This document shows positions 16,294 through 46,500 of a stretch of DNA of 64,000 nt, piece after piece. Origin of the DNA: Azolla caroliniana (Eukaryota > Plantae > Polypodiophyta); contig JBHGNT010000013.1 in assembly GCA_043228905.1 (NCBI GenBank), positions 12,462,001 through 12,526,000 of the forward strand, read 5' to 3'. Every line of letters begins with the position of its first letter. Position 1 is the stretch's first letter. The position numbers and the translations under genes are program-made. The notes under the pieces were generated by a model. The model did not search any database. It saw only the letters and a list, made by a program, of their open reading frames with translations, and was not told the DNA's origin.

Positions 16294-16919
16294 TGTTGGG
16301 AATCAACGCTTGGATTCACCTTCACCACTCGGCCACAACCGATTAATCGCGGATCAATGTAGCAGTAAATAGGAAATACAGAGAAAGACACGATACACAG
16401 GGATTAACGTGGAAAACCCTATACGGGAAAAACCACGGGAGTGCGAGACTCCAAACCAAACTATGCACAGAGAAATATACAATGGCGAGCTGCAAGGCAA
16501 CGACCTTGAGCTCGCTGTCCTCGCCACAGGCGGCTGAAATACACAGAGGCGTCTACCTCTTCGTCTCTCTCGCGCTCTATCTCTCTCTCTCTCTCGGCTG
16601 CTCTCTCTTCACTCCTCTTGAGTGGAAAAACAGAAAAACAATAGGCAACACTAAAACAGTTTGCCCTAAGTCATATTTATACTTATATGACTTTGGGCTA
16701 TTTACAACTATAGCCTCAGGGGCCCATAGCGAACATATTACGGGTATGTCCCTGCATCCGAATCGCTCTCCGGGTCTTCATCATCCGGTTCCGTAACCGG
16801 GGTCTTCATCATCCGGTTCCGTAACCGGGGTCTTCATCATCCGGTTCCGTAACCGGGGTCTTCATCATCCGATTCCCGGATATCCGACCATCCCATCCGG
16901 AGGGACCGTAATCCCAACA
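16294..16919 (-). repeat. 5' LTR of Copia F (626 bp)
   Basis: Adjacent to the PBS; three full copies of the 28-bp unit GGGTCTTCATCATCCGGTTCCGTAACCG. Confidence 0.95.
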
Positions 16920-18715: not shown

Positions 18716-21357
18716 TCGGGCTCGACCGGTTCGACCTCCAGTTGAGTCGGATTAGCTTCTTTCCGGATCGGTCTTGTCCGATCGGCTTCCGGCTGGAACG
18801 ATTTCTGTCTGGGTCGAGTGCGACCGATCAGATTTCAGCCGAATCCACTTCCACTTGGTTCGTCTTTCGTTTAGGCTAGAATTTTGGCCGAATCATCTTC
18901 CGTCTGAACCCACTCCCGGCTCTACATTCCTTGCTGCCACCTCTCGTCTCTTCGGTCTCACGTTGGTTCTCGAAGACAGCCGCCGATGTCTGTAGAATCC
19001 TTGGTATTACCGTCCTCCATTGTTTCTCCCATAGCCACCTTCTCGGCTATCTCTCCATCGTAGGCATCGACTTTGACCTTTTTTTTCTCTCAGCCACCTT
19101 CTGTCTCTTTGGTCTCACGTTGCCTTTCAGACACAATTGCCAAAGTCTATGGAATTAGAGAGGTGGGAAAGTCTCGACACGGCCATTCGCCATTGACTCA
19201 TCCATAGCCACCTTCAACTTGATGTCTTTTTTCATGGCTACCTCCTCAATCACGTCCGTCGGGCACTCTTTATGTTTGTTGATGCAAGCTTTGATTAGGC
19301 TTGCTCCATCATCCGATGTTTTGAACATGACGCGTGTTCCGAAACATTCGTCCTCTCTCGAAGTGGCCTTCGCCGTCCTCGAATGATCATCAATCTTCTT
19401 TTCATCCAAGTTGCTTTGTTTAGGCGGCTCGACTTCTTTAGATGGTCTTGTTTTTTCTACGCTTGACCTTCCCAAGTCAATATCATCAAGCCATTGACGA
19501 CGCCTATCGAACTTGTTGTACGCTCTCTTTACCACAACCTAGTTTGCCAGAAGCCCGTTCACTTGGGTATCATTTTCAAGGAGAGTCCCCAATTCTCGTC
19601 TATCCTTCATATCCACAGCCTTTCAGGAAGTACAAAGTCTTGTCCTCAAGCAACACTTGGTCCGTGGCGGGGAGACAACTAAACATCTAATCAAACTCAT
19701 CGTATACCCTCGAGGCGCTCATCTTCTTATTTTTCTTCTCTATCCACTTCATCAACTCATGTCGCGTCATCCTCGACAAATCTTCCGTCACGAACTCTGC
19801 TAATATTGCTTTCTCGAACTCGGTCCATGTTGTCTTCCCTTTTTGAAGCTCGATGACCCATCTTTGGATGTTGTTTGCGACAACTCTCTTGAAACTTGAG
19901 ATTTGACATGCTTCAGACACGTCCCTCTGATTCATCTCCCTTTTGTATGCATCAAGGAACTTCGTAATGTTCCTTCCATCAAATTGACCCTCAATCTCCA
20001 CAACATGGTGTTGTGTTGTTACGCTCTCACGTGTGAAATGAGGCGGGACCGCGGGGGCCCTAAACCAAGGAGCGTGGGAAAGAAGAGGGAGAGCGACTCA
20101 CAGAAACGCAGAGATAGAGATGGAACAGAAGATTTAATTACGATGTCAATCAACGATTACAACTAGCAAACCGGCAACAGACCCTAAACGGAGGTCCCAC
20201 ACACACACACACGGACGACACAGAGAACGCACGGTGGAGCCTCTGCTAGAAGCACACGGGCTTACACGCAACAGAGGTAACCGACACAGAAACGTAGTGG
20301 AGAGCAACGGTGGAGGAGGAGAGAGCTTGGTCCCAGTCCGACAACACTTCGTCCTTGCCAAAACACGATATTATATTATTCTTCTCCCCTCCCTTTTATA
20401 GGTCGCCGAGGAGACCGTTACATCAAAACATATCAACTTTATTCTCTGTCCTTTCGGACAGAGATACGCATCGATTCCCTAGACAATTAATACTCTTCCT
20501 AGTACATATGTACATCAGCCGATCTATTCCTAGCTATGCTCAATTCATAAACACACACACACGCGAAAAGGATTGGGTCACGCCTCCTCCCCTTGATTCC
20601 TCCTAGGGGCGGTTTTCTCCACGACAACTTGAGATTTGACGTGCTTCAGACACATCCCTCTGATTCATCTCCCTTTTGTATGCATCAAGGAACTTCGTAA
20701 TGTTCCTTCCATCAAATTGACCCTCGATCTCCACAACATGGTCGACGGCCTTCTCCACGCTCACATCGTTGTCCCGAGATCTCATCATTTGTTCGACGAT
20801 TACCATCATCCTTTCGAACTCTCCCACTTGATTGCTTCAGGATGCCATCTCCAAGTATCGGTCGATCCTCATCTTGATCCTTCTTACCACTTCTTCACGT
20901 CTGGTTCACCAAGAAATATGTGAAGGAAATCCTCGTGTGTTCACAAAATGAAGCAGAACCACTAGGGTTTCTGGACCAGAAGGATTCGATGTTTTCAACA
21001 GCATAAGCGAGGAAGTATTGAAGATAGATAGATGGAGGGAGGGAGGGAGAAAGAGATTGAGATAAAGATTGAACCCTGGAATTTAGTTTTACGAGCAGTT
21101 GGTAGTAGCTTTAGTGGTAAGTTAATTTCCTCCCATCTTGGAGGTGCAAGGTTAAAGCCTTGCTTGCACCCCTCTGTATGCACTACACATGTTTAACTTT
21201 GCATCTAGATTTTCTTTTATGATTCTCAATTCAGTCCTATTTACAACATGCTAGCATATGCGTGTGGCCTTCATCCCTTTCGCACATGCACATTGCACCT
21301 TCTCGATTTCATTCATTGCACAGAATTTTCACACCATTGCCGAAGATCTTCACGACA
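18716..21357 (-). mobile_element. Degenerate Gypsy M (gag remnant, tRNA-Trp PBS 20894-20911, LTR ~20919-21357), inserted in the 5' LTR of Copia G
   Basis: gag fragments (FDGRNITKFLDAYKREMNQRDVSEA) closely match gag of I; PBS TTCACGTCTGGTTCACCA; LTR end ATCTTCACGACA. Confidence 0.8.
20009..20626 (-). mobile_element. Gypsy solo LTR (A/L-like) inside gag of M
   Basis: Minus strand starts TGTCGTGGAGAAAACCG and ends CGTAACAACACAACA; flanked by a 115-bp direct duplication. Confidence 0.85.
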
Positions 21358-26631: not shown

Positions 26632-27343
26632 AGAAGTCTATGGCTGTGTCGACCACAGAGGCAGAGTACATGGTTGTGGTAGAGGTTGGTAAAGAACTGA
26701 TTTGGATGAAGAATTTCCTTAGTGAACTAGGAATGAAGCAAGAGACATTCCTACTCCACCGTGATCATCAGAGTGCCATACATCTAGCCAAGAATCTTGT
26801 GTACCACTCCCGGACGAAGCACATATAGAGGAGGTATCACTGGTTGCAGGAGAAAGTGGATGATGGGGAGTTTACCCTTGTGAAGATCCATACTGACAAC
26901 AATGGATCCAACATGCTCATGAAGAACCTACTGATGGACAGACTCAGCGTTGTCGTGAAGATCCGTCACTACGCGCGGATCGTGAGGCGGAACCGCCGGG
27001 GTTCTGGACCAAAAGGATTTAGAGTCGATACAAGCTTTGGCGAGAAAGTACTTAAGATAGATTGGGAAAGAGAGAAGTTGAGATTACACGATTGATTTGA
27101 AAACGAATTTCTTCCTCTTAATTTTCATAAAAAAAACCGTGTTTTTCTCCTCCCCCTTCCCTCTTTTATAGATGCTCTCATGCATATGATGCATGTGAGG
27201 GTACAAGACATGCATAAATTGCATGTTTGCCATTTGGCGCTTAAGTATTACATGTGGTGCATGCTAACCATGTCACTCATTTTAGCACTCATGGATGAGA
27301 ATTTACATGTAAAAGTACAATGATAGAAATATAATTTCAACTA

Positions 27344-27414
27344 AATACTATGGCTTAATGGTAAGCCATTTCACTCCTAACTTGGAGGTGCAAGGTTCGA
27401 ATCCATACTTGCCC
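27344..27414 (+). other. tRNA-like / Pol III promoter cassette inside LTR I (second copy ~34215-34285; diverged copy ~21099-21170)
   Basis: A-box TGGCTTAATGG (27351-27361) with D-stem GGCT/AGCC; anticodon-loop-like CTCCTAA; B-box GGTTCGAATCC (27394-27404) at tRNA spacing. The acceptor stem does not pair. Confidence 0.65.
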
Positions 27415-28071
27415 TCCTTATATATGTATATATTTTTATATATTTATTTTATCTAGTCGCCGGTTCGCCGGATGCCGCCGCCAGATGCCGCCGCCGGATG
27501 CCGACACCGGATACCGGTGCCGCCGCCGCCGCCGGATACGGATGCCGCCGCCAGATACCGGTGCCGCATGCCGCCGCCGGATTGCGGTCGGATGCCGTCG
27601 GATCACCGGCTCCATCGCCGGTCCGGTTTTGGTTGGCCAAAACCCTTTTCGAGTAGCTAGCCACCTCCACTCTAAGTTCAAGTTACCTTGACCTCTCTAT
27701 GCTCCACACATAGACACAAAGATAATATCTTTTGCTCCACCTTATATATGATGAGAGCCGTATTTGTCGTGCCTATGTGGGATATCTCACAATTTTCTCT
27801 TTTCTTTTCACAAACTTTATACCCTCATATCTTGACATTTAGTTGTCCATTTCTCGTGTAATAAAGTGCATTCGAAACCTCCATCATTTTGTACTTAGAT
27901 ATTAAAAATGTTATCTCACAATTATTGTATTACATGATTCATACTCGATTTTGTACGTTTTATGGGATTTTCACACTATTGCCGAAAATCTTCACGACAT
28001 CCACCCCCACCAAACCGCACGTCCTCCGGTACGTGCCAAGAAGAGAAGAAGTGAGATTTCGGCTACGATGA

Positions 28072-31000
28072 TCAATTAGATTCCTCCATGTCTTCATTTT
28101 CATCCGGCCTATTATGTTCATCGTCGAGGTAATCGAGGTCAGGATCCTTGTCTTGTCTTTTCTTGAAAAGCTTTACTCTTTTTCCCGCAATGGGTACGGC
28201 CAACCTTGATCCGTCTAGTTCCGCAAGGTGGTATGTGGCATTATCGTTGGCACTTGTCACCACATACGGCCCGAACCATCTTCTTGCAAACTTCCTTGTT
28301 GTACTATGTTGATTGTCAAGGGTGCTGTCGTAGACCAAAACCCAATCCCCTTCTTCAATCTTCTTGGGACGAAGTCGATGCGTGTTGTCGAACCGAACTT
28401 TGTTCTTTACTCGAGCTGCCTTCATCATCTTTCGCGCTTTTTCTAAATCTTCAGGTCTTCTTTCAAGTTGCCTTATCTGCGCCGCTAATAACTCTTCTCG
28501 GCTCATCTCGTTCTCCCACGGTATCTCTACCCATGAGGCGATCGTCCTTTCGATGGGCATAATCGGCTTTGTCCATACATAAGCTCCGTCGGCATATACC
28601 CTGTCACCGAGCTATGTGTCGTTCTATCGGCCCACAAGGCATAGGGTAATAGTCGTGGCCAATTCCCGACTCGACCGTTGCATGCCCGTACGATGGCTTT
28701 AACGATAGGTCCATGCCCTCGCTCGATCTTCCCATTTGCTTTCGGATTGTAGGCAGTCGTGAGGGAGAGCTTCACGCCTAGTCTTTCGAAGAGCTCCGTC
28801 GCTTCGTGCGCGTCCAACTCCCCTCGTTCGGCCACTATCTTCCCTACACATCCATATCGGCAAACAACATCTTCAAGTAAAAATTTACAAACGGCTGAAG
28901 TCGTCTTATTTGTCAAGGCTCGTCCTTCCACTTGATTTGTCAAGTCTTCCCTTGCGAGCGCTAAGTACTTCATTTGTCCCACTCCCATTGGCATCGAGAC
29001 CAGATCCACCATCCATTTGAAGTGAATGGTGAGTGGGTATGTCGGCTTTAACTCATCACGATGACGTATATTTGAATATACTTGGCAAGTTTCGCATGTG
29101 GACACGAAATGGAGTACATCTTTGTACATGCTTGGCCACCAGTACTTCTCCTTCAACTTTTCGAACGTCGCCCATGTCCCTCTATGACCTGCCCAAGCAC
29201 TCTCGTGGAATTCGGTCATCAGCGTCTCTTGCTCTTCTTTCTTTACCACCACTCGACGTGGTATTCCTGTCCTTCTTTTTGGATGTCGCCAAAGGAATCC
29301 TCCCTTCAAGAAGTATCGATAAGCTTTCTTCCGGATTCGTAGGGCCTCCTCCTTTGTCAACGAAGCATCGGTCGTCAATGTTCTTAGGAATCTACCGATG
29401 AGTAACCACTCTCCTTCGTACTCGTTCTCATTGAAGGCGTGGAGGGTTTGCGTGTCCTGGTCTTCCGCCGACAAACGAGCCATCTTGAAGAAGTCGAGGG
29501 CGACATCTTCATCTTCCGAAACCATGTTACTTCCATTTGAAAATCTTGCCCTCGACAGCATGTCAGCCATGGCGTTCTTCGTCCCTGCGATGTGACGGAT
29601 CTCTGGGTTTAAAGACTTGATGTAGGCGATCCACCTTAGCATAGCAAGATCTGGGGTCGCACATCCCGAGACCATTCCGAGAATTGGGAGACAATCTGTC
29701 TCTATTATCACTTCTGATCCGATCAGGTAATCTTTGTCCGTCTTCACTGCCGACACAATACCCCAAAGTTCCCGCTTGACTTGGGCATATCTTTGTTGCC
29801 GTTCGCTGAGAACCTTTGCTCCGAACCGGAGGGCATATCGCGCACTATCTTCACCTTCTTGATTGATGACCCACCCGATTCCGGTTGGGCTCGTATCTAC
29901 GGTCACGTAAATTGGTTTCCCTTCGGCATAGTCGGCCTTCCTTAGTGCCGGAGCTTCAAGAAGCAGTTTCTTTAATCTTCGCATCGCCTCTGTGTGCTCG
30001 TCTCGCCATTCAAACTTTATTCTTTTCTTTAGTAGTCCATATAACGGTTCGGCGACATGAGCGTAGTGAGGAATCCATATATGATAAAACGTGCACGCTC
30101 CAAGGAACCTTCGAACCTCCGTTTGGTTTTCGCATTCTTCTTTCATGTCTTGGATTGCGTTCACTTTGGATGGCGAGGGCTTCCGGCCGTATGCTCCACA
30201 CAAGTGACCTACCACCAAGATCTCCGGTTGCCCGAATGCGGATTTTTCTCCCGAAAATGTCAAATTCGCATCTTCGAGCCTTTGAAGCACCTTCTCGCAA
30301 TCTTTCATATGATCCGCAACGAACTTTCTACAACCTTCCTTATCTTTCGATTCATCTTTCTCCTCATCCGAACATCCTTTTATCGGAATATCATCCAAGA
30401 ATGGCATCGTGATGTCCGGAATGCAATCCTTCAAGACTTTATTCATGGCATTCACCATATGAGCCACCGAGTTCGTTGCGCCTTGGGGTAAGGTACACAT
30501 CCGCACAAGCCCGATCGGAGTCCTCATGGTTGTAATGTCCCGACTGTCGATCGCCAACTGGAATTGGTCATATCCGGAGTAGAGATCGCCAATGGAGTAG
30601 ATGGACCGGCCCGCAAACGCTTCGGCAAATTCGTCCACGCTCGGACCGATTCCGGCATTTCGAATTGTCACCTTGTTGACGGGTTGAAGATCTTGGATGA
30701 ATCGCAATGATCCATTCTTTTTCGGCACCATGAACCACCTATTGGAATAAGGAGCATTCGACGGTTCTAGAATTCCCATACTCACCTTCTCCTTTAAGAG
30801 CTCGATCAACTTCGGAAGGTGTGCTCTCGGAACCGGTATCGGTTTCAAATTCCAAGGCACATGAGGCACCATGAAGATCACCATTGGCTCTATAACCTTT
30901 GGGTCGGCGCATCCGATTTCTCGTGGGAAGAATGCGAAAGCCTTCCCATGTCTCTCAAGCATATCACGAAACATTCGCTCCTCTTCAGGGAGAAGGAAAT

Positions 31001-31565
31001 CCTCCTTTCCAACTCGTAGCTTCCCCTTCGTCTCTTTGGTGAAGTCATGACCTATCTTCTTCGGATCTCTTAAGCTTGGATCGTTAGCGACTTCCTTCAT
31101 CTTTTGCCAGCTATCTTCCGGTAGCAGAACCGCAACTGGCTTGATCTTCTTATCCACTGTTTTATATTTCGTGTTGATGTTAGCTTCCTTCATCGAGATG
31201 CCACGACGGTATTCATCGATGATAGCGTACATGTTGACGGAGTTAACCGAAATCACACGTTGGTTGTGAAGATAGCTCAAGTCCACGACGTCCTTGATTT
31301 CGCCGATGGTGTCGTTAAATGAGGCTTCTTCCATAATATGAGTCACGAACTCCCCTTCTTCTATTATGTTCTCTTCTTTCAGCATCTTCTCAAATTCTTG
31401 TATCCGGTGCTTGTGCTTCTTGTCGGGTAGTACTAGTTTACATGCGCCACTAGGTGTGACACATGTTGCTTCTCCTTGCAATCCACGCACTCTTCTTTCT
31501 TGTGGGGTCTTGTGATTGCTCGGACTATTTGTGCCCCATGCTTCAATAGTCCGCTCAAAAAATCC
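28072..31565 (-). pseudogene. Pol (RT-RNase H-integrase) of Gypsy I, in the -1 frame; single 1-nt deletion near 28568
   Basis: DLYSGYDQF, LPQGATNS and FLDD RT; VDTSPTGIG RNase H; H..H..C..C, AYNPKANGKIER integrase. MYGQ|KPIMP is broken by a missing A, and the C-terminus (RWFGPY) continues in ORF 28072-28560. Confidence 0.9.
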
Positions 31566-33754
31566 GAGGATTCGCCTCCGAGACTATCTCGATTCCTTTC
31601 ATGATTGGCTCGCACCGTTAGGAATTGGACCGATCTTTGGTTGTCAAGACTCTTTATTCGTGCGAAGGCTGCTCCATTATCGAACACTTTGGTCTCCATC
31701 CGAGATGATGTGATATAAGGTTGCCCTAGGATGACAGGATGCGATGCCGATTCTTGTACGAAGAAGTGTTGATCCATCTCCACATCCCCGATCGTGACTT
31801 TGACATTGGGACAAGCTCCGTACAAGTCCTCCGTAGACTTTGTTGCCACGCGAATCTTCCATCCGTGGTTTGTATTGATTGGCCATCTTCCCTTTTTGTA
31901 GAAGTCGGTTGACATGAGGTTGATCTCCGAGCCGTGGTCGATCAAGGCTACGACGGTCTCTTTCTTCTCCCCGATCTTCACCGGCGTCTCCGTTGTCGCT
32001 CGTGCCCAATGAGGTCGAGTGTAGTGGTTGTCCACCATATCTTCATCGATTTCGTCTCTTGCCATCGTTATGGCATTCGTTTTTGCTTTTTGCGGCTTCT
32101 CTTCTTCCTCGTCCGATTGTTGTCTCTTTCTCTTTACAAGGTCCATGATCGTGTCATGGAACTCCTTCTTCCTAATGCCAAGCAATTCCCTCAAGGACAA
32201 AGTTACGTGGCTATCAAGAACTCGTTCTTCGAGAATCTTCTTTAGGTCCGTCGTCTGCTCTATGTCCGACCTTAGCTTATAGGTAGGTATGGTCCTTGTC
32301 CTCCGAGCGGGGTCTTCGACACCAACCTTCACGGGCCGAACCGTTTCTTCAACTCGTATGCTTGGCTCCCCTTTTCGGCTTGATTCTCGTTCCTCCGTTT
32401 GTAAAGGTCGACTCGTCTCCGCATCGTCCTTCTTTTTCACGTTCCTTGTTTCATGTCTTTTAGATGGGCCTTGCTCTTCTATTCTCTTTCTCTTTTCTTC
32501 GACGAACACCTCGTGGTTGTCGCACATCACCTCTGCGAGTATGGTGTTGTCATCCACCGGATCCAACCACCCGGTTATGCTTTGAACGCTTCGGTCTGCA
32601 AGCTCTACCTCGTTCGATGTGACTTTTCCCTTCTTCTCATATTCGAGAACGGAAGTCCAAAACTTTGCTCCCGCTCTAGCAGCTTCAGTCTTGTCTTTCC
32701 CGACTCTTATTCCGGCCGACGCAGCATAGTGCATCGCATCCACATGAGTCGCATCGGCATCCTCCATAGATTTCTTCATTCCTCCTCTTCCGAAATTCGC
32801 CCGTAGGGGTCTTCTAGTCTCGCTTGAGCAGATCATGTTGTCCTCTATGTATACGATATTTTGTCGAATCGCCTCTCGAAGGCTCGCACAATCCCTTCTC
32901 ATGTGGTCCATGCTATCGCACCACACGCATCTAAAGGGTTCTTTTCCTTTAGGGCCCCGACGATTCATGTTGGCTAGAGTGACCTTCTCGAACTTCTTCG
33001 CTAACTCTTCAATGATGTCGTCATCAATCTTCTTTTCTTCCACGTTACTTTGTCTTGGCGGCTCAGCTACTTTCGGCGGTCTTGCTTTCTCCGTGGTAGT
33101 CGGTCCCGTCAAGTCGGTGTCATCAACCCATTGGCGACGCTTGTCGAGCCTATTGCATGCCCGCTTCACCGCGATCCAGTCCGCTACGAGCCCATTTGCT
33201 TGGGTATCATCTTCGAGAAGAGTCCCCAACTCCCGTCTATCCTTTATGTCCACGGCCTTCAAGAAGTACAAAGTCTTGTCCTCTTCAAGCAATACTTGGT
33301 CCATATTGGGGAGACGACTAAACATCTGGTCGAATTCGTCGTACACCCTCGAGACGCTCATCTTCTTATTCTTCTTCTCTATCCACTTCATCAGGGCATG
33401 TCGAGTCATCCTCGTTGAGTCTTCAGTCACGAACTCCGCTAGTATCGTTTTCTCGAACTCGGACCATGTTGTCTTTCCTTCTTGAAGCTCGATGACGTGT
33501 CTTTGGATGTTGTTGGCGACAACTCTCTTGAAGCTTGCGATTTGACGTGCCTCGGACACGTCCCTTTGATTCATCTCCCTCTTATATGCATCAAGGAACT
33601 TCGTAACGTTCCTTCCATCGAATTGGCCCTCGAGCTCTACGACACGATCGACAGCCTTCTCCACGCTCGCGTCGTTGTCCCGAGATCTCATCATTTGCTC
33701 GACGATTAGCATCATCCTTTCGAGCTCTCCCGCTTGGTTGCTTGAGGACGCCAT
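31433..33754 (-). CDS. Gag-protease polyprotein of Gypsy I
   Basis: Open ~773-aa ORF with CVWCDSMDHMRRDC zinc knuckle and ALIDHGSEINLM...ILGQPY aspartic protease. Confidence 0.9.
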   Translation of the reverse strand: MASSSNQAGELERMMLIVEQMMRSRDNDASVEKAVDRVVELEGQFDGRNVTKFLDAYKREMNQRDVSEARQIASFKRVVANNIQRHVIELQEGKTTWSEFEKTILAEFVTEDSTRMTRHALMKWIEKKNKKMSVSRVYDEFDQMFSRLPNMDQVLLEEDKTLYFLKAVDIKDRRELGTLLEDDTQANGLVADWIAVKRACNRLDKRRQWVDDTDLTGPTTTEKARPPKVAEPPRQSNVEEKKIDDDIIEELAKKFEKVTLANMNRRGPKGKEPFRCVWCDSMDHMRRDCASLREAIRQNIVYIEDNMICSSETRRPLRANFGRGGMKKSMEDADATHVDAMHYAASAGIRVGKDKTEAARAGAKFWTSVLEYEKKGKVTSNEVELADRSVQSITGWLDPVDDNTILAEVMCDNHEVFVEEKRKRIEEQGPSKRHETRNVKKKDDAETSRPLQTEERESSRKGEPSIRVEETVRPVKVGVEDPARRTRTIPTYKLRSDIEQTTDLKKILEERVLDSHVTLSLRELLGIRKKEFHDTIMDLVKRKRQQSDEEEEKPQKAKTNAITMARDEIDEDMVDNHYTRPHWARATTETPVKIGEKKETVVALIDHGSEINLMSTDFYKKGRWPINTNHGWKIRVATKSTEDLYGACPNVKVTIGDVEMDQHFFVQESASHPVILGQPYITSSRMETKVFDNGAAFARIKSLDNQRSVQFLTVRANHERNRDSLGGESSDFLSGLLKHGAQIVRAITRPHKKEECVDCKEKQHVSHLVAHVN

Positions 33755-33795
33755 CTCCAAGTATTAATCTCGACTTGATCCTTCCTACCGCCTCC

Positions 33796-33813
33796 TTCAC
33801 GTCGGGTTCACCA
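33796..33813 (-). promoter_or_regulatory. tRNA-Trp primer-binding site of Gypsy I
   Basis: TGGTGAACCCGACGTGAA on the minus strand, 8 nt downstream of the 5' LTR. Confidence 0.85.
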
Positions 33814-35530
33814 CTTAATTATGTCGTGAAGATCCGTCACTATGCGCGGATCGTGAGGCGGAACCGCCGAGGTTCTGGACCAAAAGGATTTAGAGTCGAT
33901 ACAAGCTTTGGCGAGAAAGTACTTAAGATAGATTGGGAAAGAGAGAAGTTGAGATTGCACGATTGATTTGCAAACGAATTTCTTCCTCTTAATTTTCATA
34001 AAAAAAACCGTGTTTTTCTCCTCCCCCTTCCCTCTTTTATAGATGCTCTCATGCATATGATGCATGTGAGGGTACAAGACATGCATAAATTGCATGTTTG
34101 CCATTTGGCGCTTAAGTATTACATGTGGTGCATGCTAACCATGTCACTCATTTTAGCACTCATGGATGAGAATTTACATGTAAAAGTACAATGATAGAAA
34201 TATAATTTCAACTAAATACTATGGCTTAATGGTAAGCCATTTCACTCCTAACTTGGAGGTGCAAGGTTCGAATCCATACTTGCCCTCCTTATATATGTAA
34301 ATATGTATATATTTTTATATATTTATTTTATCTAGTCGTCGGTTCGCCGGATACCGTCGCCGGATGCCGGTGCCGCCGCCAGATGCCGCCGCCGCCGCCG
34401 CATGCCGCCGCTAGATTGCGGTCGGATGCCGTCGGATCACCGGCTCCATCGCCGGTCCGGTTTTGGTTGGCCAAAACCCTTTTCGAGTAGCTAGCCACCT
34501 CCACTCTAAGTTCAAGTTACCTTGACCTCTCTATGCTCCACACATAGACACAAAGATAATATCTTTTGCTCCACCTTATATATGATGAGAGCCGTATTTG
34601 TCGTGCCTATGTGGGATATCTCACAATTTTCTCTTTTCTTTTCACAAACTTTATACCCTCATATCTTGACATTTAGTTGTCCATTTCTCGTGTAATAAAG
34701 TGCATTCGAAACCTCCATCATTTTGTACTTAGATATTAAAAATGTTATCTTCACAATTATTGTATTACATGATTCATACTCGATTTTGTACGTTTTATGG
34801 GATTTTCACACTATGGCCGAAAATCTTCACGACAGCGTTTGTCGACAAAAGACAAGACTAGTTGACTTCCTCCCACAAGAGTGAAGAGGGATTTTGTTAG
34901 GAATATGTCTCTCTTGTGGGAGGAACCAACTATTCGAGCCGACAGTCAAAGACAAGGAGTAGCCGACTGGTCGGGCTGAGAGCTGACAATCGATGACAAG
35001 GAGAGTCGACTGAGAGAGTCGACAACATTGTATAAGTGATCCAAGTCGAAGACACGACTGACTAATCGGGCCAACTGGATGGTCAACAACAAGGCCGACT
35101 AGTCGGGCCGATTGGACAGTCGACATAGGAGTCGACTAGTCGACCAGTCATTTGATTAATTGTTACTATTATTACTATAGTTTATAATAATAGTAATAAT
35201 AGTAGTAAAGGTTATATTTGTAAATAGCCCATATGATGTATAATTATAATTTCTACACTTAATAGGGCAAACACAGAGTGTTGAACAGAAGTTAGAGTTG
35301 AATAGAAACTGCAGAGTATAGTGAAGTGTTGTGCATGCAGTCAAGAGTGTAATAGAGAGTGTGTGTGAGCGGCGTCATAGCTGAGTACGGTTAGACGCTA
35401 AAAGCCCTGCTTGGCTAAATCTCTATTCCCGTGGTTTCCCCCGTTTAGAGCTTCCACATAAAACTATGTGCACTGTACATTTGTCCATTTTGTTGTTTTC
35501 GCGTTCTGTCTGTACATCTAAGCCTATCTT

Positions 35531-38500
35531 TGTCGAGAGATAAGCTCAACATCGGCCGGATCGGCTGAAGAAGCCGAGGACCGGATCGGTTGGGACCGAT
35601 CGGTTAGGCCGAACGCGTAAACCGGTACGCAGACCGGTGCGTAGGTAGGGCCGGATCGGTGCGTAAACCGAGAGGCCGTTAGGAAAGATATTCTGTGAGG
35701 AATATATTTGGGAGTTAGTGTAGGAGCTCTTAATGAGCATTGAAGTATTGTCAGTACTTCGGTCAGTCCTTCTAGGACTTGTACAAAGTGTTCATTGAAC
35801 ACATATATGTATTGTTGTTTTTTTTTTTCTTGAATATATTTTCTTGTGTTTTCTCTCCGTCTCTCCCACGTATACTGTGTAAGCTCAAGCTCTTCATTAA
35901 ACCTGAGTTTCCTTCCTTCTGTTCGGTCTTCATACTTGCTTCCGCACGCTACTTTTTACATGGTATCAGAGTGCGAGGGTTGAGAACCTCTCTGCAGCCG
36001 ATACAGCTTGACGAAGAAGAACAAGAAGAACGATGGATAGAGGCATGGCGAGCTCGTTTCCAACAGAGAAGCTCGACAAAACCAACTACGCGTCTTGGTC
36101 CTACAAGATGCACCAGTACCTGCTCGGGCACAGCTACTGGAGTTATGTCGAAGGAGCTAATGACGCGGCACCCAAATCGACACACAGAGACTTCCCATCG
36201 TGGGAGCAATCGGCGAGCAGGGTATTATACTACTTCGCGTCATGTGTGGGCGAACAGCTATTGAGCTATGTTCGGGATGCAAAGACGCCGAAGGGTGCGT
36301 GGGAAAATCTGAAGAAGATTTTCGCCGCGAGCACCACAGCCAGGAAGCTTCAGCTCCGACAGGAGTTGAACAACCTACGACAACGTGACTTGTCGGTGGC
36401 GGACTATACCTTGAAGATCAAGGATATCTGCGACTCCCTCGCCTCCATAGAGGTGAACATCGAGGAGAGTGAGATGGTCCAGATCTGTCTCGGAGGTTTG
36501 GCGTCAAAGTTCGGAGCGTTCCGAACGGCTGTGTGTACCCAGGAGAATACGCCGTCCTTTTTTTACTTATAGTCAATGCTCTTGGTAGAGGAGAACCACG
36601 CGGGTGCGTCTACAAGCACGCACACCGACAGTAGAATGTTGTACACGGAGGGAGATAGGCCCCGTGAACGTGGAGGACGACGTGAGTCGGCGCGCAATGG
36701 AGACGGCCGACGAGATCAAGGAAGAAGGCACCGAAGTGATGCCGACAGCAACTCCGGACCCTCCGGAAATAGGGGGAGTTGAAGCGATGAGAACCGTCAA
36801 GGGAAGGCCATCGCGGAGTGCTGGTACTGTGGCAAGAAAGGCCACAGGGAAAGTGAGTGTTGGAAGAAGCGCCCCGATTTGGAGAGAACCGGAAACGGAA
36901 ACGGCTCCGGACATACCGACAAGGGAAATCGGCAGCGATCGCACTACGCCGAAGACTTCGGGAGAGCCGGAGAAGGGTCTGCCTTCGTGACGAGACACAA
37001 AGAAAACTCAATGAAACAGAGCACCCCGAGATCGGACGAGGTGTGGTACGTAGACTCCGGCGCGGCAAACCACATGACGAGCCATAAGGAGTGGTTCTCG
37101 TACCTTGAAAAACCGATACAACCTGGAGTAGTCGCAACTGGAGACGACACTCCGCATCCAATCGCGAATGTCGGAGAAGTTCCCTTTAGCCATGTCGGGA
37201 AGAAAGGGAAACTCATAAACGTGTTGCACGTTCCGACAATCACGAAAAACTTGGTCTCACTCGGACAGATCGTCGACCAAGGGATGGAGGTTCGGTTTAC
37301 ACACCTCGGGTGCTTCATTGAGGAAGAAGGCCATGTGATTGCACAAGGGCGCAGAGACGGGAGGATGTTCATCCTCGACTCCACTGACGGCGGCACCGAA
37401 ATGTTCGCGAAGGGACGAAAATCCGAGTCGGACATCGACTTGTGGCACAAGCGGATAGGCCACGTCAACTACCAGTGGCTTCAAGATCTGCAATCGAAAC
37501 AGGTAGTGTTCGGATTGCCCAAATTTAGTGGCCGAAAGGCACAAATTTGTGAAGCCTGCCCGCTCGGGAAGCAACACAGACTTCCTTTCCCCAACGAGCG
37601 AAACCGGAGCCGGAACAAGCGCGACCTTATACACTCCGATGTATGGGGGCCAACACAAAACGTTAGTCTTGGCGGGAGCCGATATTTCGTCTCCTTCATC
37701 GACGACCACACGCGGCACACGTGGATCTACCTCATTGAGAGGAAGAGCGAAGTCTTCGACTGCTTTCGGGACCTCAAAGGGTTCGTGGAAATGGAAACGG
37801 GACGAAAGATCAAGTGCCTGCGGTCGTGGCGGGAAAGAGTACTTCTCTGGTCAATTCAACGGTTATCTACAACAAATGGGAATTCGGCGCGAATTCAGTT
37901 GTAGATACACGCCGGAGCAGAACGGCATGGCCGAGAGGAAGAATCGGTCAGTTCTGGAAGCGGCACGGGCAATGCTAGAGGAGAAGAGCTTGCCCAAGTT
38001 CTACTGGGCCGAGGCGGTAAGGACCGCGGTATACATCCAGAACCGGATCGGAGACAAAGTGTCGGCGCACGAGCTATATTTCGAAACGAAGCCGAACTTG
38101 CAACACTTGAGGGTGTTCGGTAGCATTGCGTATGTGCATGTACCAAAAGAGAAAAGGAGGAAGTTGGACGCAAAGGCTGAGAAATGCATCTTGGTCAGTT
38201 ACTCGGATGAGCAGAAGGGTTATAAGTGCTATAACCCTTGCACCAAACAAGCGCGTGTTAGCCGCGACGTTGTGTTTGACGAGTCCGCGTCCTGGTACCA
38301 GCCCCCGACTCCGAACCTCGACTCCAATCCGAGTTTTGACGATGAGGTCAGCGAGGCCGGGATGCCTCCGGATGAGCCCGAAATCGAGACCCGCCAAGAG
38401 AGTCTGATTTCACTCCGCTTAAGTGGACCGATTGGACGACTGAGTCGGTACGATCAGTCCGATGAAGAGCCAGCGAGTAGTGGAGACTCGGTCGTGCGTT

Positions 38501-40278
38501 CCCCACGCAGGAAGCCGAGGAGACGGCTTACGCGCAAAGAGAAAGGGAAGAAGTAGGTGTCGGATTCCGGCACAGATAGGAACGAGTCAAACCGACGCGA
38601 GTCCGACTCCGAGGGAACCGTTGACGGGTCTTTAAAAGTGAAGTCCGCGTGGACCGAGAAGGCCTCGACATCGGCTAATGTGAGATTACGCCGATCTACC
38701 TGCCAGAAGAATCTTGTTTTGCGGTTCGGATACAACGAGTACATGGCGCATCATTATGCGTACATGACCCATGTAGCGGAAGTGCGTGAGCCGGAGAGCT
38801 ACGCAGAAGCGGCAAAAGACGCGACTTGGCGTGCCGCGATGGAGGAAGAGATGCACGCATTGGCGGAGAACGAGACCTGGGACCTGGTTGACGCACCGAA
38901 GGGTGTGAAGCCGATCGAGTGTAGGTGGGTGTACAAGGTCAAGTACAACACCGATGGCTCGGCTGAGTACCGAGGAGCGGTTGTCGCGACATGCGAAGCC
39001 ATATGGTTGAAGCGGCTACTTAAGGACCTGCAAGAGGAGGTGTCAGATCCGACAACGATCTACTGCGACAACCTCAGCAGCATCCAGCTCGCGAAAAACC
39101 CCGTTTTCCACGCACGGACCAAGCACATTGAGGTGCACTACCATTTCGTCCGTGAGCGTGTCCTTTCTGGTGAGGTCGAACTTCAGTACGTTCCGACGGA
39201 TCGGCAGACTGCCGACATCTTCACCAAGCCTCTTGGTCTGGACAAGTTGCGGCAATTCTCAGGTGCGCTCGGATTGCGTCACCTTGACGTGCCAAACTTG
39301 AGGGGGAGAACAGTCCCGAACGACCAAGCAAGGCAACAGGAAAGGAGCGGAGACCACGACACCGAGTCGGTTGACTCGGTTGTCGAGTTCGACTTCGGAT
39401 CGGCTGAAGAAGCCGAGGGCGGACCCGCGGAAAAGTCCGGAAGCGGACAGAAGGGGAGCAACCAAAGGAGAGAGCCGAAGCCAACCACGCATGGGGAAGA
39501 TGACGCCATCGAGGGCGAGAAGACCAAAGACAAGTTGGAGACAGCCAACTCGGACGCCATTGAGGGCGAGAAGACCGAAGACAAGTTGGAGACAGCCAAC
39601 TCGGACGAGAGCGAAAACCGATCGGAGGTAGCCGAGTCGGTTCGGATGTTTGATTCAGATACATTGAATCAATTGAGGCCCAAGCGGAAGAAAAGGCAGC
39701 AGGAGAAGCGTCAACACCGCAACAACAGAAGAGCTAATAAGGGCCACATGAGCAGACAAGCCAACTGGAAGGGTCGAAGTGCGCGGAGTCGAACAGGTCG
39801 AGGAGCGCGAGCGAGGCGTGAAGCCAGGAGGAACCGGAGCTGTGAGCCCAAAGATCCCGAAGAGCCTCAAGTTGAGCTTGAGGGGAAGTGTTGAGAGACA
39901 AGCTCAACATCGGCCGGATCGGCTGAAGAAGCCGAGGACTGGATCGGTTCGGACCGATCGGTTAGGCCGAATGCGTAAACCGGTACGCAGACCGGTGCAT
40001 AGGTAGGGCCGGATCGGTGCGTAAACCGGGAGGCCGTGAGGAATATATTTGGGAGTTAGTGTAGGAGCTCTTAATGAGCATTGAAGTACTGTCAGTACTT
40101 CGGTCAGTCCTTCTTGGACTTGTACAAAGTGTTCATTGAACACATATATGTATAGTTGTTTTTTTTTTCTTGAATATATTTTCTTGTGTATACTGTGTAA
40201 GCTCAAGCTCTCCATTAAACCTGAGTTTCCTTCCTTCTGTTCGGTCTTCATACTTGCTTCCGCACGCTACTTTTTACA
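35531..40278 (+). mobile_element. Copia J, RT-deleted; LTRs 35531-35960 and 39889-40278
   Basis: TSD ATCTT (35526-35530 / 40279-40283); PBS TGGTATCAGAG directly at 35961; PPT TGAGGGGAAG; gag, CWYCGKKGHRESEC knuckle, WYVDSGA protease, integrase and RNase H end. Confidence 0.93.
36033..39894 (+). pseudogene. Copia J gag-pol with stops, a frameshift and an internal RT deletion
   Basis: VKYNTDGS|AEYRGAVVATCEAIWL joins the RT N-terminus directly to RNase H near 38960. Confidence 0.9.
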
Positions 40279-43200
40279 ATCTTCCTCACTGATCTACGAT
40301 TCGATCCCATCAACATCAACAATACCAAGGAAGATGATGCCATATGAAATGTTTTTAAGTTTTGTTGAGAGACAAGCTCAACGTTCGTGCGTAATACGAT
40401 GCGTAACCCAGTGCATAGACTGGGTGTGTAAATCGGTATGCATAACATGGTCATATCGGTGCATAAACCGGAAGGCCGTTAGTATAATATTCCTCGTAAG
40501 GAATAATTTTGGGAGTTAGTGTAGATCTCACTTATGAGCATTGAAGTACATGTTAGTACTTCTGTCAATCCATATGGACTTGTATAAAAGTGCTCACTGA
40601 GCACATCGTATGTACAAATTGAGTATTATTTTGAATCGAGTTTTTTTCTATGTGTTCTCTCTCTTTGTCTCTCCCACGTACTGTGCATATACAAGCTCTC
40701 CATTAAACCTGCGTATTTTCAGTGTTCGGTTTCCTATTGCTTCCGCACATAATCTTTTTCATGGTATCAGAGCGCGAGGGTTGAGAACCTCTGCAGCCGA
40801 CATAGCTTGAAAGGAAACTAACCAAGAAGAATCGGTAAAACCGATGGATAGAGGCATGGCTAGATCGCTTCCTACCGAGAAGCTCGACAGAAACAACTAT
40901 GCGTCTTGGTCCTACAAGATGCACCAGTACCTACTCGGGCATGGTTACTAGAGCTATGTCAACGAAGCAAATGACATAGCACCCGAATCGACACACAAAG
41001 ATTTCCTAGCGTGGGAACAGTCGACGAGCAGAGTATTGTACTGCTTCGCGTCTTGTGTGGGCGAACAGCTCCTGAGCTATATTCGGGATGCAAAAACGCC
41101 AAAGGATGCTTGGGGAAATCTGAAGAAGATCTTCGCCGCAAGCACCAGAGCCAAGAAGCTTCAACTCCGATAGGAGCTGAGCAATTTACAACAACGCAAC
41201 TTGTCGGTGGCTGATTACACCTTGAAGATCAAAGATATATGTGACTCCTTAGCCTCTATCGATGTGAACATCGAGGAAGGCAAGATGGTGCAGATCTCTC
41301 TCGGGGGACTGGCGTCGAAGTTCGGAGCATTCCGAATTGCTGTGTGTACACGGGAGAATACGTCGTCGTTTTTCGACTCACAATCGATGCTCCTTATAGA
41401 GGAGAACCACGTGGGTGCCTCGACGAGCACGCATGCCAACAACAAGATGTTGTACACGGAGGGAGATAGGCCTCGTGGTCGTGGCGGACGAGGCGAGTCG
41501 GTGTGCTATGGAGGCGGCCGACGGGATCAAGCAAGAAGGCACCGAAGTGATGACGACAGCAATTCTAAACCCTCCGGAAACAGGGGCAGTCGAGGCGATG
41601 AGAACTAGCAAGGGAAATCTGCCACGGAATGTTGGTACTGTGGCAAGAAAGGCCACAGGGAGAGCGAGTGCTGGAAAAAGTGCGCCGATTCGGAAAGAAC
41701 CGGTCCAGATTAGGCTCCGAACAGATCGACAAAGGAAATCGGCAGCGATCGCACTACGCCGAAGAATCCGGAAAAACCGGAAAAGGGTGTCAATCTTCGT
41801 GACGAGACACGAAGCGAACTCGATGAAGATGTCCACCCCAAAATCGGACGAGGTCTGGTACGTCGACTCCGGTGCGTCAAACCACATGATGTGCCACAAG
41901 GAGTGGTTCTCATACCTTGAGAAACCGATGCAACCGGGAGTAGTTGCAACCGGAGACGACACTCCGCATCTGATCGCGAATGTCGGTGAGGTTCCCCTAA
42001 GCCATGTCGGGTAGAAAGGGAAACTCATGAACGTATTACATGTCCCCACAATCACGAAGAATCTGGTGTTGGTCGGGCATCTCATCGACCAGGGGATGCA
42101 AGTCCGGTTCACGCATCTCGGGTGCTTCATCGTGGAAGAAGGCCAAGTTATTGCGGAAGGGCGCAAAGACGGGAGGATGTTTATCCTCGACTCTAGTGAC
42201 GGTGGCACCGCAATGTTCACGAAAAGACAAAAAGTCGAGTTGGATATCGACTTATGGAACAAGCGGATAGGCCACGTCAACTATCAATGGCTTCAGGACC
42301 TGCAATCAAAATAGGTGGTGTTCGGATTGCCCAAATTTAGTGGCTGGAAGGCACGAATTTGTGAAGCCTGCCAACTCAAGAAGCAACACCGACTTCCTTT
42401 CCCTAACGAGCGTAACCGGAGCCGGAACAAGCTCGACTTGATACATTCCGATGTATGGGGGCCGGCACAGAACGTTCGACTTGGCGGGAGTCGATATTTT
42501 GTCTCCTTCATCGACGACTATACGCGGCACACATGGATCTATCTCATCAAGAAGAAGAGTGAAGTCTTCGACTGTTTCCGGAACCTCAAAGGGTTCGTGG
42601 AAACGGAAAAAGGACGGAAGATCAAGTGCTTGCGGTCGGATGGCGGAAAAGAGTACTTTTCCGGTCAATGCAACGGTTATCTGCAACATATGGGAATTCG
42701 GCGTGAATTCAGTTGTAGATACACGCCGGAGCAAAACGGCGTGGCCGAGAGGAAGAACCGGTCAATTGTGGAAACGGCACGGGCAATTCTAGAGGAAAAG
42801 AGCTTGCCCAAGTTCTATTGGGCCGAGGTGGTACAAACCGCGGTGTACATTCAGAATTGGATCGAAGAAAAAGTGTCAGCGCATGAGCTGTATTTCGGAC
42901 AGAAGCCGAATCTGCGACACTTGAGAGTTTTCGATAGCATTGCGTATGTACATGTGCCAAAGGAGAAACGGAGGAAGTTGGACGCGAAAGCTAAGAAGTG
43001 TATCTGTGTCGGCTATTCGGACGAGCAAAAGAGTTATAAGTGTTATAACCCTCGCACCAAACAAGCGCGCATGAGCCGCGATGTTGTGTTTGACGAGTCC
43101 GCATCCTGGTACTTGCCTCCGACTCCGGACCTCACCTCCACTCTGAGTTCTGACGATGAGGTCAGCGAGGCCGAGATGCCTCCGAAAGAGCCTGAAATCA

Positions 43201-43586
43201 GGACCCGCAAAGAGAGTCCGATTTCATTTCGGTTAAGCGGACCAAATGGACGACTGAGTCGGTTTGACCAGTCTGATGAAGAGTCGGCGAGTAGTGGAGA
43301 CTCGGCCGTGCATTCCCCACGCAGGAAGCCGAGGAGACAGCTTACGCGCAAAGAAAAAGGGAAGAAGAAGGTGTCAGATTACGGCACGGATAGGAACGAG
43401 TTGGATCGACGCGAGTCCGACTCCGAGGGAAGTGACGACGGGTCTTCGAGACTGAAGTCCGCATCGGCCAAGAAAGCCTCAACTTTGGCTAATGAGCAAT
43501 TACGCCGATCAACCCGCCAAAAGAACCTTGTCGTGCGGTTCGGTTACAACAAGTACATGGCGCATCACTATGCGTACATGGCGCAT

Positions 43587-46500
43587 TGTCGTGGAGAAAA
43601 CCGTCCCTAGGCGAAAACCGGGTATAACGTGCGTAAACCAGCCCTTACACATGGGCACAAGTTTTGTTGTATAGTACGCAGATAGGTACAAGTCGGCTGA
43701 GGTGAAATCCTAGGTAGCCCGCATTCATTAGGGAGAAAATCAAGGCATATCCCTGTCTGAAAGGACAGGGAATAAACATGATGTAATGGGCGGTAACAGC
43801 CTCCCTCCTTGGGCTATAAAAGAGAGGGAGAGGTATTGTAAAGATATCACGTTCTGTGGAGGACGAAGTGCTGCCAGACTGGAACCGCGCTCTTCTCCTC
43901 TGTCTTCTCCATAGTTGTTCTGTGCAGGTTTTTAGGAGGCCGACTCTGCTCCGCAGAACGCCCGAGTGCTTCCGGCAGAGTCTCCATCTCGCGTTCTGTG
44001 TGTGTGGGTGTGTGTGCAAGTGTCAGAGCCTATCACTCGCCGGCTTACCGGTTGTAACTCCTTGATTTATATATACATATACATTCGTTCTGTCTCCATT
44101 GTTCAGAGTTAGTTGGAACTCCTGTGAATCTATGTGTCGGTGCGCATGTGAAGTACATCTGTAGTTTCCTTCCCCTCTTCTCATTCGGTTATTTCTCAGT
44201 CCAAGGCCCCCGTGGTTCCGCCTCGTTCTCCACGCACGCGCGTAACAACGCGACATATTTGGTGAACCTGATGTGAACAGGCGGCAGAGGAATAGAAAGA
44301 TGAGAGGGTCGGATCTTGCAAAAGCCATGGCTTCAGTTGTGGATCGGATAGTGAGTGTGCGCGAAGGCACAGGCGCCCTCGATAGGGCTATTGAGGCAGT
44401 CGTCGGCACGATAGGCCGGTTCGGTGGGAAGGACACCACAAGCTATTTGGAGGCTTACCGAGCCGAAATGGTGATGAGGGACATCCCAGAGGATAGGCGA
44501 CTAGCTAGATTCCCTCAAGTGGCGATGTCGGGCATCCACGCGGAGGTGCTTGAGGTACGAGCTGAGAGTCGGACCTAGGAAGAGTTTGAAGGCCGGCTCC
44601 TTGAAAAATACGAGCTTGATGACGTGCTTTGGCTATTGAAGTGATACTTCATGGAATGGGTGGAGACCCCCGAAAAGGGGAGAAACGCGTCTGTGCTCCT
44701 TCGGGAATTTGAAGAATGCTTCGCACGTCTTTCGGCGCTGGACCGGACCGTACTGGACACAAGTCGTGTCCTATTGTTCGTTAGATCGGTGGACATATGG
44801 AACCGGGAGCAAGTGGGCTTCCTACTGGAGACCGATGACGGCCTAACAACCGACTGGGCCGTGGTAAAGAGAGTATGCGGCCATTTTGACAAATGGCATG
44901 AGTGGGTCGATAAAGGCTTGACAAGGGCGGGCTCGGTTGCGACAAGGAAGGTCGAGGTACCCCCACTGGCGCGAAGGGAAGAGACCCGAGACTGGCTCGT
45001 GACCGGCTCGACTTCAACTGGCATGGTCAAAGGCTCGTCTGGAGGAGTGGCTCTGGAGGAGCTGACTCAGATGGTGAGGAACCTCCAGATTGCACAAGCA
45101 AGGAGGGACGGTGGCAAACAAGTCCGTGACCGAAGGCCTCCGGCTGGGAACCGGTGCTTGTGGTGCGACGTAGTCGGCCACGCCCGAAAGGACTGCGGGG
45201 ACTTCACCGAAGCGATAAGAGCTAACGTGGTGTACCTATGGAACGGTCGGTGCACGCTAGCGAGACCCGAAGGGCCTTGGATCTGAATGTCAGACGAGGG
45301 GGTATGAAATGGCTGATGGAAGAAGCGGCGGCGGCTCGCCACGCGGAAACCGTCCACTACTCGGCGTCGGTTGGAATCCGGGCCGGAAGTGATGAAGTCC
45401 AAAAAACGAAGGACTTCGGGTTCTGGCCGTTGATGCTAGAAGGCCTAGCCGGCATACGGCTAAGGAAAGAGGAAGCGGACCGCGCGGAAAGATGGGTCCG
45501 GGAGGTAACCGGGTGGAGTGACCCGGTCGAAGAGAAGACGGGCTTCGTGGAAGCCACGTGTCAGAACTATGAGGTTCTGGTGGAAGACAAACACGCGGGA
45601 AAGACCGGGGGGGGCGGACCCTCACAACGGTATGAGACCCGGTTCAGGCCGAAGTAGAATGATGTTGGTGCATCCGGCGCACCGAACAAGGCCAAGAAGG
45701 CCGGTTATCGGTTGAGCACAGAGATCGAAAGGTCCTGGAGGAACGGATCCTCAACAACAAAGTGGAGTTGTTGTTGAGGGAAGTGCTTGGTATCACCAAG
45801 AAGGAGTTCCACGCCTCCATCGTAGACTTGGTGAAGCGGAAAAGGCTTTCAACGGAGCCGGAGCCGGAGAAGCCGGTGGAGGTGCGAACAACGCACCTAG
45901 AAGACATGGCCCTGGAGGACGAATTGGTGGAAAGCCACTACTCGAGGCTACATTGGGCTAGGGCCACTACGGAAACCCCTGTTCGGATCGGGGACGTCCA
46001 GGAGCCAGTGATGGCGTTGGTAGACCACGGTTCGGAGATCAACTTGATGTCCATGGACTTCTACAAGAAGGGAAAGTGGCTGATCAACACCAAGCATGGG
46101 TGGAAGATACGGGCGGTAACGCGCGCCACGGAGGAGCTACACGGAGCCTGCCCGAATGTACAAGTGAAAATCGGTGATGTCGAGATCGATGAACACTTTT
46201 TCGTGCAGGAGACATCCTCACATCCGGTGATACTCGGAGAACCGTACATCATGGTGGCGCGCATGGAGACAAAGGTGTTGGACAACGGTTCAGCATATGC
46301 ACGAGTCAAGAGCCAGGATGGGCGTTACTCAGTCCAGTTCCTGACGGTGCGACCGAACCATGAGCGTAACCGCGAGACCCTTAGTGGCGAAAACTGAGGG
46401 GATTTTTAGAGAGGGCTATCAAGGCGTGGGGCCGCGATAGTTCGGACACCCCGGAAAAACCCCACAGATGTACTATAGGCAAAAAGACATGTACCATAGG

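Follow-up and report, generated by a model that had tools for sequence, protein, structure and literature searches.

A probable −1 frameshift cassette after the protease of a Phygy-like Ty3/gypsy lineage of seed-free plants, with a candidate −2 variant in one branch

How a retrotransposon makes its reverse transcriptase (RT), RNase H and integrase when these lie out of frame with the gag-protease gene in front of them is the question raised by this window, a stretch of 64,000 nucleotides of Azolla caroliniana DNA. In plants, an excess of Gag over Pol has mostly been explained by splicing, and here is a plant lineage with what has the form of a classical −1 cassette. Our analysis makes it very probable that this Phygy-like lineage relies on programmed −1 frameshifting, in which a slippery heptamer and a pseudoknot would together produce a Gag-PR-RT-RH-IN fusion. 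The observations behind this reading are the anatomy of the elements and their reading frames, the conservation of the heptamer, covariation in the stems, the fold of the protease and selection on the linker between the heptamer and RT.

The window holds two copies that include the junction, and element I, on the minus strand, has the following features.

26951–34834, minus strand: element I, a full-length Phygy-like Ty3/gypsy LTR retrotransposon, delimited by LTR alignment and flanks
33822–34834, minus strand: 5′ LTR
33796–33813, minus strand: primer-binding site, TGGTGAACCCGACGTGAA
31433–33754, minus strand: ORF1, gag-protease (DUF4100 region; protease D-H-G-S motif at about 31939)
31559–31565, minus strand: slippery heptamer G_GAU_UUU in the ORF1 frame (GGATTTT, context TCG GAT TTT)
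31556–31558, minus strand: post-heptamer codon, TTG (63 of 69 related loci, among the best 80 of 171 matches, have a stop here)
31521–31553, minus strand: stem 1 (9 bp) with its 15-nt loop
31503–31538, minus strand: stem 2 of the predicted H-type pseudoknot (UGGGG, 31538–31534, with CCCCA, 31507–31503)
28527–31565, minus strand: ORF2, in the −1 frame (a linker of about 129 codons, RT, RNase H, integrase)
about 30728–30204, about 30008–29619 and about 29246 onward, minus strand: RT, RNase H and integrase domains of ORF2
26951–27999, minus strand: 3′ LTR, from the LTR alignment

Element I measures 7884 bp, has TG...CA ends and is flanked on both sides by the 4-bp target-site duplication ACGC; its LTRs align with 995 matches and 9 mismatches (995 of 1004 aligned bases). 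The primer-binding site, which we take to be a match to tRNA-Trp, is identical or near-identical in 17 of the 27 representatives of the family introduced below and absent from the sequences of the remaining 10 loci. Together the two ORFs run from 33754 to 28527. Between 31583 and 28527 the −1 frame has no stop, and it enters pol as GFFERTIEAWG, just as the first-pass annotation had read it; the integrase undergoes a frame change near 28570, and a Pfam search of ORF2 up to that point found no chromodomain and no archaeal RNase H. Judged by duplication type, size and coding layout, the element appears Phygy-like.

The cassette that had been described in element I is present in every part: the heptamer GGATTTT in the gag-PR frame, a spacer of 5 nt (TTGAG), a 9-bp stem in which CGGACTATT (31553–31545) pairs with AATAGTCCG (31529–31521), a 15-nt loop and, inside that loop, the UGGGG of stem 2, whose pairing with CCCCA would close a pseudoknot with a loop 3 of 13 nt. 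The 64 nt 3′ of the heptamer fold with z = −3.74, and 1 of 200 shuffles is equally good. The TTG after the heptamer is private to element I: at 31557 the letter that would make it TAG accounts for a depth of 26878.8 out of 26883.3 in run X1, 28 out of 28 in X2 and 3.2 out of 3.2 in X3. Since the family has a stop at 31558–31556, ORF1 of element I extends 41 codons beyond that of its relatives. Four contig-only runs over this junction contain single-contig joints only and have no bearing on splicing or expression. U_UUU_UUG was considered as the slip site of element I and rejected, because it exists solely through the private TTG. The transframe peptide SSDFFERTIEAW proposed in the first-pass annotation can indeed be read in element I and is specific to that copy; locus L001 would read SSDFLKRTIEAW.

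The second copy, element L, lies on the plus strand.

43587–50609, plus strand: element L, an older, degraded member of the same lineage as element I (LTRs with 624 matches and 51 mismatches)
46395–46397, plus strand: premature TGA in the gag-PR frame, CGA in five close relatives
46400–46465, plus strand: cassette consisting of heptamer, TAG, stem 1 and stem 2

Element L is 7023 bp long, and its flanks, GCAT and ACAT, are one base apart. A homologous cassette had been claimed for it too, and this claim holds: GGATTTT (46400–46406) is followed by TAG (46407–46409), by stem 1 (46413–46443; GGGCTATC, 46413–46420, paired with GATAGTTC, 46436–46443), which carries the reported compensatory change from T-A in element I to C-G, by stem 2 (GTGGGG, 46426–46431, with CCCCAC, 46460–46465), and the −1 frame reads GFLERAIKAWG. 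The first-pass annotation missed that the gag-PR frame is already stopped by the TGA two codons upstream of the heptamer; the −1 frame, too, meets a stop 54 codons in, and element L was rejected as an intact second witness. Taken alone, its cassette folds no better than shuffles (z = −0.17, with 80 of 200 shuffles equally good), and it is the family tests that carry the case. In element I the private TTG and the frame change in the integrase had likewise been overlooked. Both window copies are damaged and neither is intact, so the case must rest on relatives.

Other features of the window are recorded here for completeness. Element L appears to have been inserted into degraded copia sequence (35531–43586 and 50611–51949), in which a 3.1-kb stretch is repeated at a distance of 4.8 kb with 83% identity. 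A Ty1/copia element at 11582–16919 (minus strand), with an intact 1374-aa ORF (12191–16315) and near-identical LTRs, is a young insertion. Fragments of the same gypsy lineage as elements I and L lie at 19386–20857 (minus strand, gag) and 59–556 (plus strand, integrase), and neither includes the junction. The stretch 60501–61856 (plus strand) is an open frame of 451 codons with no Pfam hit, possibly a host exon, and holds SSPVSVLD, a motif of plant TRM/LONGIFOLIA proteins. At 62050–62454, 6-nt units (GACATG/GAGATG) are arrayed in blocks that measure about 88 nt.

Relatives were taken from one metagenome scan as the best 80 of 171 confirmed matches, five of which end before the protease end, leaving 75 to be scored. 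Since a single record-name series accounts for 75 of the 80 loci, which are probably collapsed repeat assemblies, the loci cannot be treated as independent, and the evidence is the diversity of the family, represented by 27 sequences under 85% identity (the two window copies included), and not the number of loci. Among these best 80 of 171, an in-frame G-G-[A/G/T]-T-T-T-[T/C] is found in 69 of the 75 loci that reach the protease end (60 GGATTTT, 5 GGATTTC, 2 GGGTTTT and 2 GGTTTTT); a stop stands directly 3′ of it in 63 of the 69 (27 TAA, 24 TAG and 12 TGA), and the codon whose last letter is the first G of the heptamer takes 13 forms. The six loci in which the heptamer is missing (L042, L060, L064, L065, L066 and L072) have no RT placed and appear rearranged. 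Within the same best 80 of 171, 56 of the 59 loci with RT placed have pol at −1, the exceptions being L062, which is degraded, and L052 and L058, to which we return. In intact loci the pol frame opens 10–121 nt before the ORF1 stop and never 3′ of the heptamer. Intact copies with gag and pol in one frame, or without heptamer or stem, were looked for as evidence against a frameshift, and close relatives supplied none. The frequency of the heptamer and of the −1 pol frame in this set, combined with the covarying stems and the protease fold described below, supports the −1 reading and the placement of the site after the protease that the first-pass annotation had put forward.

The site has left a mark on protein databases as well. 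Named homologs come from Physcomitrium, Riccia and Adiantum, those from P. patens for the protease region only, and scans of IMG/VR found no relative. Among the matches listed, 120 ORF1 homologs divide into 53 that end in DF, 3 in GF and 23 in DF/GF plus a short tail ending PL/PF, the remainder being 2 with VF[DY], 6 with other endings, 18 long gene models and 15 without the anchor motif. Residues whose codons cannot end in G make up 31% of the linker but precede the terminal DF/GF in 0 of 79 cases, even though the tail measured from the QFLTV motif varies from 22 to 33 aa. In a more distant set (133 listed), 26 of the 65 hits that reach the domain end have a DF/GF/VF ending by pattern. One distant protein, P0105 (1374 aa), has protease and RT in one frame, with GFF following the protease in that frame, as at the beginning of the pol-frame peptide; it is either a single-ORF subfamily or one copy with an indel, and has one member. 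In a clade comprising L048, L063, L068 and L069 together with Adiantum and P. patens proteins, the stop falls 5 codons past the heptamer, inside stem 1, and two loci of this clade have G_GGU_UUU.

The linker to RT bears on two alternatives. It spans 120–156 codons. In 22 of the 27 representatives (the count omits element L and L062, which have stops, and three without RT) not one of its 2856 codons is a stop, while the other frames have 8.6%; in 9 of 9 pairs dN is lower than dS. A stop-free, selected linker argues against an intron and against internal initiation. According to the first alternative, pol would come from a spliced transcript from which the ORF1 stop is removed, as in Ogre elements, and the hairpin would serve splicing or packaging. 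Ogre elements have a functional intron (excerpt of PMC12786077) and keep GAG-PROT apart from RT (excerpt of PMC6317226), ORF1 is joined to pol in database gene models of P. patens, Riccia and Adiantum, and some copies offer an acceptor-like TTTTTAG. However, AG is present in only 8 of the 27 representatives (TAA, TGA or a sense codon stands in the rest), and TTTTTAG was rejected as a conserved acceptor on that count; from the heptamer onward the linker is stop-free and under purifying selection, neither of which is required of an intron; the bridging gene models use many different joints, as expected of automatic predictions; and splicing leaves unexplained both the fixed G before GAU and the fixed distance from heptamer to stem. 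Splicing is thus very unlikely. The models that join ORF1 to pol-frame sequence (P0123, P0171, P0172, P0177, P0203, P0211 and others, at differing points) are probably gene-prediction artefacts around a frameshift.

According to the second alternative, even less likely in our judgement, pol would be translated separately, by internal initiation or by reinitiation after the ORF1 stop, with the knot as entry signal. The stop does stand directly before a structured element and the linker does contain Met codons, but the first of these varies in position between codon 6 and codon 103 and shows no conservation, and 1016 of the 2856 linker codons precede it and are stop-free. Free Pol would, in addition, miss the link to Gag that is normally used for packaging. 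Transcriptional slippage was also considered and rejected, the T-run being only 4–6 long, which is too short for it.

The structure downstream of the heptamer was analysed in an alignment of 34 out of 52 distinct cassettes, from which near-duplicates, degraded copies and clades with other stems were omitted. In these 34 cassettes stem 1 is 85% paired and 6 of its 10 pairs change on both sides; its covariation score is matched by 0 of 500 shuffles, and partners slid out of register are 21–44% paired. A de novo search for H-type pseudoknots finds one with a stacking energy of −21.5 kcal/mol or better, a threshold set by the weakest real value, in 27 of 27 representatives; the corresponding counts are 36 of 1080 for random positions, 4 of 64 for other heptamers and 14 of 810 for shuffled sequences. 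G-C pairs make up most of stem 2, and within the main clade swapped partners are often equally good; A-U replaces G-C at two columns, in three representatives each, and in fixed windows the own partners outscore permuted ones in 10000 of 10000 permutations, a control that, like the shuffles, ignores relatedness. Both stems covary across related cassettes by alignment, shuffles and permutations, and an H-type pseudoknot is predicted in every one of the divergent cassettes, as the first-pass annotation had anticipated on both counts. The spacer between heptamer and stem is 4–8 nt across the family, mostly 5–6. The same knot topology is built from different sequence in L048, L063, L068–L070 and L079, and in L081 (1113–1190), outside the alignment, the arrangement recurs; L081 sits on a contig of a cyanobacterial genome assembly and is probably plant DNA carried into the bin. 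No Rfam family covers the cassette (best match E 1.6). The prediction, backed by covariation, is of a 3′ stimulatory structure 5–6 nt downstream of the heptamer.

These data also bear on the least probable of the alternatives, namely that the cassette has been kept for a protein constraint, RNA dimerisation or packaging and that the frame break is mutational decay. There are lesions in both window copies, and the stems overlap a conserved pol-frame peptide (RTI...WG...SP). Decay would not, however, be expected to leave an identical offset and an identical site in 56 of 59 loci (best 80 of 171); compensatory pairs alter the encoded residue (U-A to C-G turns Asn into Asp), which speaks against a protein constraint; and the divergent clades, L081 among them, rebuild the knot from different sequence.

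What precedes the site is most likely a protease. When the last 150 residues of ORF1 were modelled (pLDDT 66), Foldseek matched them to Ddi1 and retroviral proteases at E 8e-6, and the model has the fold of a retroviral-type, putatively active protease. Alignment with the Ty3 protease is weak (E 0.07), 24 of the 29 members match Pfam Asp_protease_2 with E values up to 0.1, with member 1 below the curated cut-off, and a whole-ORF1 profile against the PDB found nothing useful. The D and G of the active-site motif are invariant, with H where Ty3 has S (D-S-G). The full motif (31939–31928, minus strand) is D-H-G-S in 28 of 29 sequences and D-Q-G-S in L048, the usual form being D-T/S-G.

Programmed −1 frameshifting at this site could proceed as follows. 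A ribosome held at the knot would be decoding GAU UUU, and tRNA-Asp and tRNA-Phe would re-pair on GGA UUU; a minority of ribosomes would slip by −1 and continue into Gag-PR-RT-RH-IN, and most would stop at once and release Gag-PR. Since most would release Gag-PR, the supply of protease would equal that of Gag, one to one, and rationing would apply to RT, RNase H and integrase alone. A shift placed after the protease implies protease at Gag levels, and one may speculate whether the odd D-H-G site keeps the enzyme quiet until assembly. The adjacent stop may assist the slip, in which case the sense codon of element I would weaken its shift; a nearby stop matters for frameshifting at the G_GAU_UUU of pea enation mosaic virus (excerpt of PMC5009743). 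Dozens of natural variants of one small pseudoknot are now at hand for testing on plant ribosomes, and Physcomitrium is a tractable host.

The most surprising part of the finding is the pairing of −1 with a candidate −2 shift in a sister branch, which the first-pass annotation had not noticed. L052 (2834–2900) and L058 (2496–2560) carry AG_GUU_UUU and the family pseudoknot, with pol in the −2/+1 frame; the junction reads CAG GTT TTT (G/T)AC TAG, the −2 frame is open for 1152 and 1099 codons, respectively, and the −1 frame closes after 0 and 5. The two loci form a clade supported at 100/100 and 100/99 in two trees (midpoint root, no clade test). They differ by a dS of about 1.1 and a dN of 0.08–0.10 in protease and RT, both ORFs being under purifying selection, and six members of the protein cluster of L052 end in NQVFD. 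This divergence, the low dN and the six shared endings make a chance deletion or an assembly error unlikely, and because all other intact loci are −1, the −2 state is probably derived. The branch rests on two loci, and a third protein search, with 120 listed of 220, found no further cluster near it beyond P0145 and P0149. A distant protease, P0379 (124 aa), ends KEKVFY, like the QVFY of the −2 branch, and could be a second, independent switch. The predicted knot of L052 and L058 has a stem 1 of 10–11 bp and a stem 2 of 7–8 bp and sits closer to the heptamer, by one base, than the homologous GG of main-family members; the spacer to the first paired base is 5 nt, equal to that of main-family members with an extra stem pair.

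We consider −2 frameshifting the probable state of this branch. For these two loci alone, pol might instead be reached by a +1 shift, or the branch might be non-autonomous or a mis-assembled relic, which we regard as possible but rather doubtful. A +1 and a −2 shift reach the identical frame, and DNA cannot tell them apart; the split-frame plant elements of a 2003 survey were +1 (excerpt of PMC5009743); L058 has UUU_U; and with two loci only, the L058 junction is without cover in runs X1–X4. Against +1, L052 offers no re-pairing (UUU to UUG, GAC to ACU); a −2 slip, by contrast, lets the A-site re-pair on UUU in L052 and L058 alike, and the site matches the −2 sequence of PRRSV (excerpt of PMC7618472). 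A relic or misassembly, for its part, is at odds with an intact pol, with purifying selection across a dS of about 1.1 and with an ORF1 end common to six cluster members.

If the −2 reading is right, the slip would place the A-site on the same three U's as the −1 slip of the main family does, and equally far from stem 1. An identical landing register in both branches would mean, as seems likely, that the knot acts as a ruler fixing the register. Consistent with the nearer knot of this branch, −2 shifts are favoured by spacers 1–2 nt shorter (excerpt of PMC3458567). On balance we lean towards a single pseudoknot inherited across seed-free plants, which would drive −1 slips in most families and −2 slips in one branch, in each case onto the same three U's. 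A retroelement would then have a −2 frameshift driven by RNA structure, and evolution would have paralleled the laboratory result that the size of a slip depends on spacer length and mRNA tension. With the two branches, natural sequences can be used to test the spacer/tension model of slip direction. Full-text searches of the open-access literature found no −2 shift described for a retrotransposon.

Among known systems, Rous sarcoma virus has a gag-pol −1 shift with the protease as part of Gag. The wording of a review places that protease in pol, and the same source describes a pro-pol −1 frameshift after the protease in MMTV and HTLV (excerpt of PMC5009743). The likeness to such retroviral shifts lies in a heptamer and 3′ structure between protease and RT, such that only RT and integrase would be rationed; the difference is that here we have a plant LTR element without env, with one shift and not two, and with G_GAU_UUU and a stop directly behind it. 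G_GAU_UUU sites are known from plant umbra- and dianthoviruses, for example PEMV RNA2, G_GA being a known variant of X_XX (excerpt of PMC5009743). These viruses use the identical heptamer on plant ribosomes, but theirs is aided by long-range pairing kilobases away, whereas a compact local knot is predicted here. For L052 and L058 the parallel is PRRSV, whose −2/−1 site is AG_GUU_UUU (excerpt of PMC7618472): the 8-nt site is identical, and the −1 frame is a short dead end in both. PRRSV, however, has no RNA structure at the site and needs nsp1beta and PCBP, according to the same excerpt, unlike L052 and L058 with their predicted pseudoknot 5 nt downstream. A difference between −1 and −2 among relatives, as between the main family and L052/L058, also has a precedent in Trichomonas vaginalis viruses, where virus 1 is −2 and viruses 2–4 are −1 (excerpt of PMC5009743).

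Among retroelements, −1 shifts are well known in animals and fungi, as they are after retroviral proteases, and a 2016 review citing a 2003 survey (Gao et al. 2003) gives only two split-frame plant types, both +1 (excerpt of PMC5009743). Sireviruses are +1. Several other plant elements are split: Ogre is spliced, Retand has GAG-PROT, a stop and then RT, and Tcn1 and Selgy have GAG overlapping PROT (excerpt of PMC6317226). Ogre and Retand are likewise split after the protease, and a −1 heptamer with a pseudoknot after the protease is not described for Ogre, Retand, Tcn1, Selgy or sireviruses in the available portions of these sources. Nor did full-text searches of the open-access literature find a frameshift cassette described for Phygy or for gypsy elements of mosses, liverworts or ferns. 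Phygy is the closest comparison. It is a plant non-chromovirus Ty3/gypsy lineage with a 4-bp NCGN duplication, a size of 7656–9968 bp and an interior filled by the coding region (excerpt of PMC6317226); its ORF organisation is listed as "not determined", and both uses of "frameshift" in the available part of the text refer to mutations (Neumann et al. 2019, PMC6317226). Element L, at 7023 bp, is below this size range. Element I resembles Phygy in its ACGC duplication, which fits NCGN, in its 7884 bp, which are within range, in a coding interior without an extra ORF and in having Physcomitrium relatives. It differs in that GAG-PROT overlaps RT-RH-INT at −1 and in that relatives also occur in Riccia and Adiantum. 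The GAG-PROT / −1 RT-RH-INT layout would settle the ORF organisation of Phygy and points to gene-prediction artefacts as the origin of the database models that span the junction.
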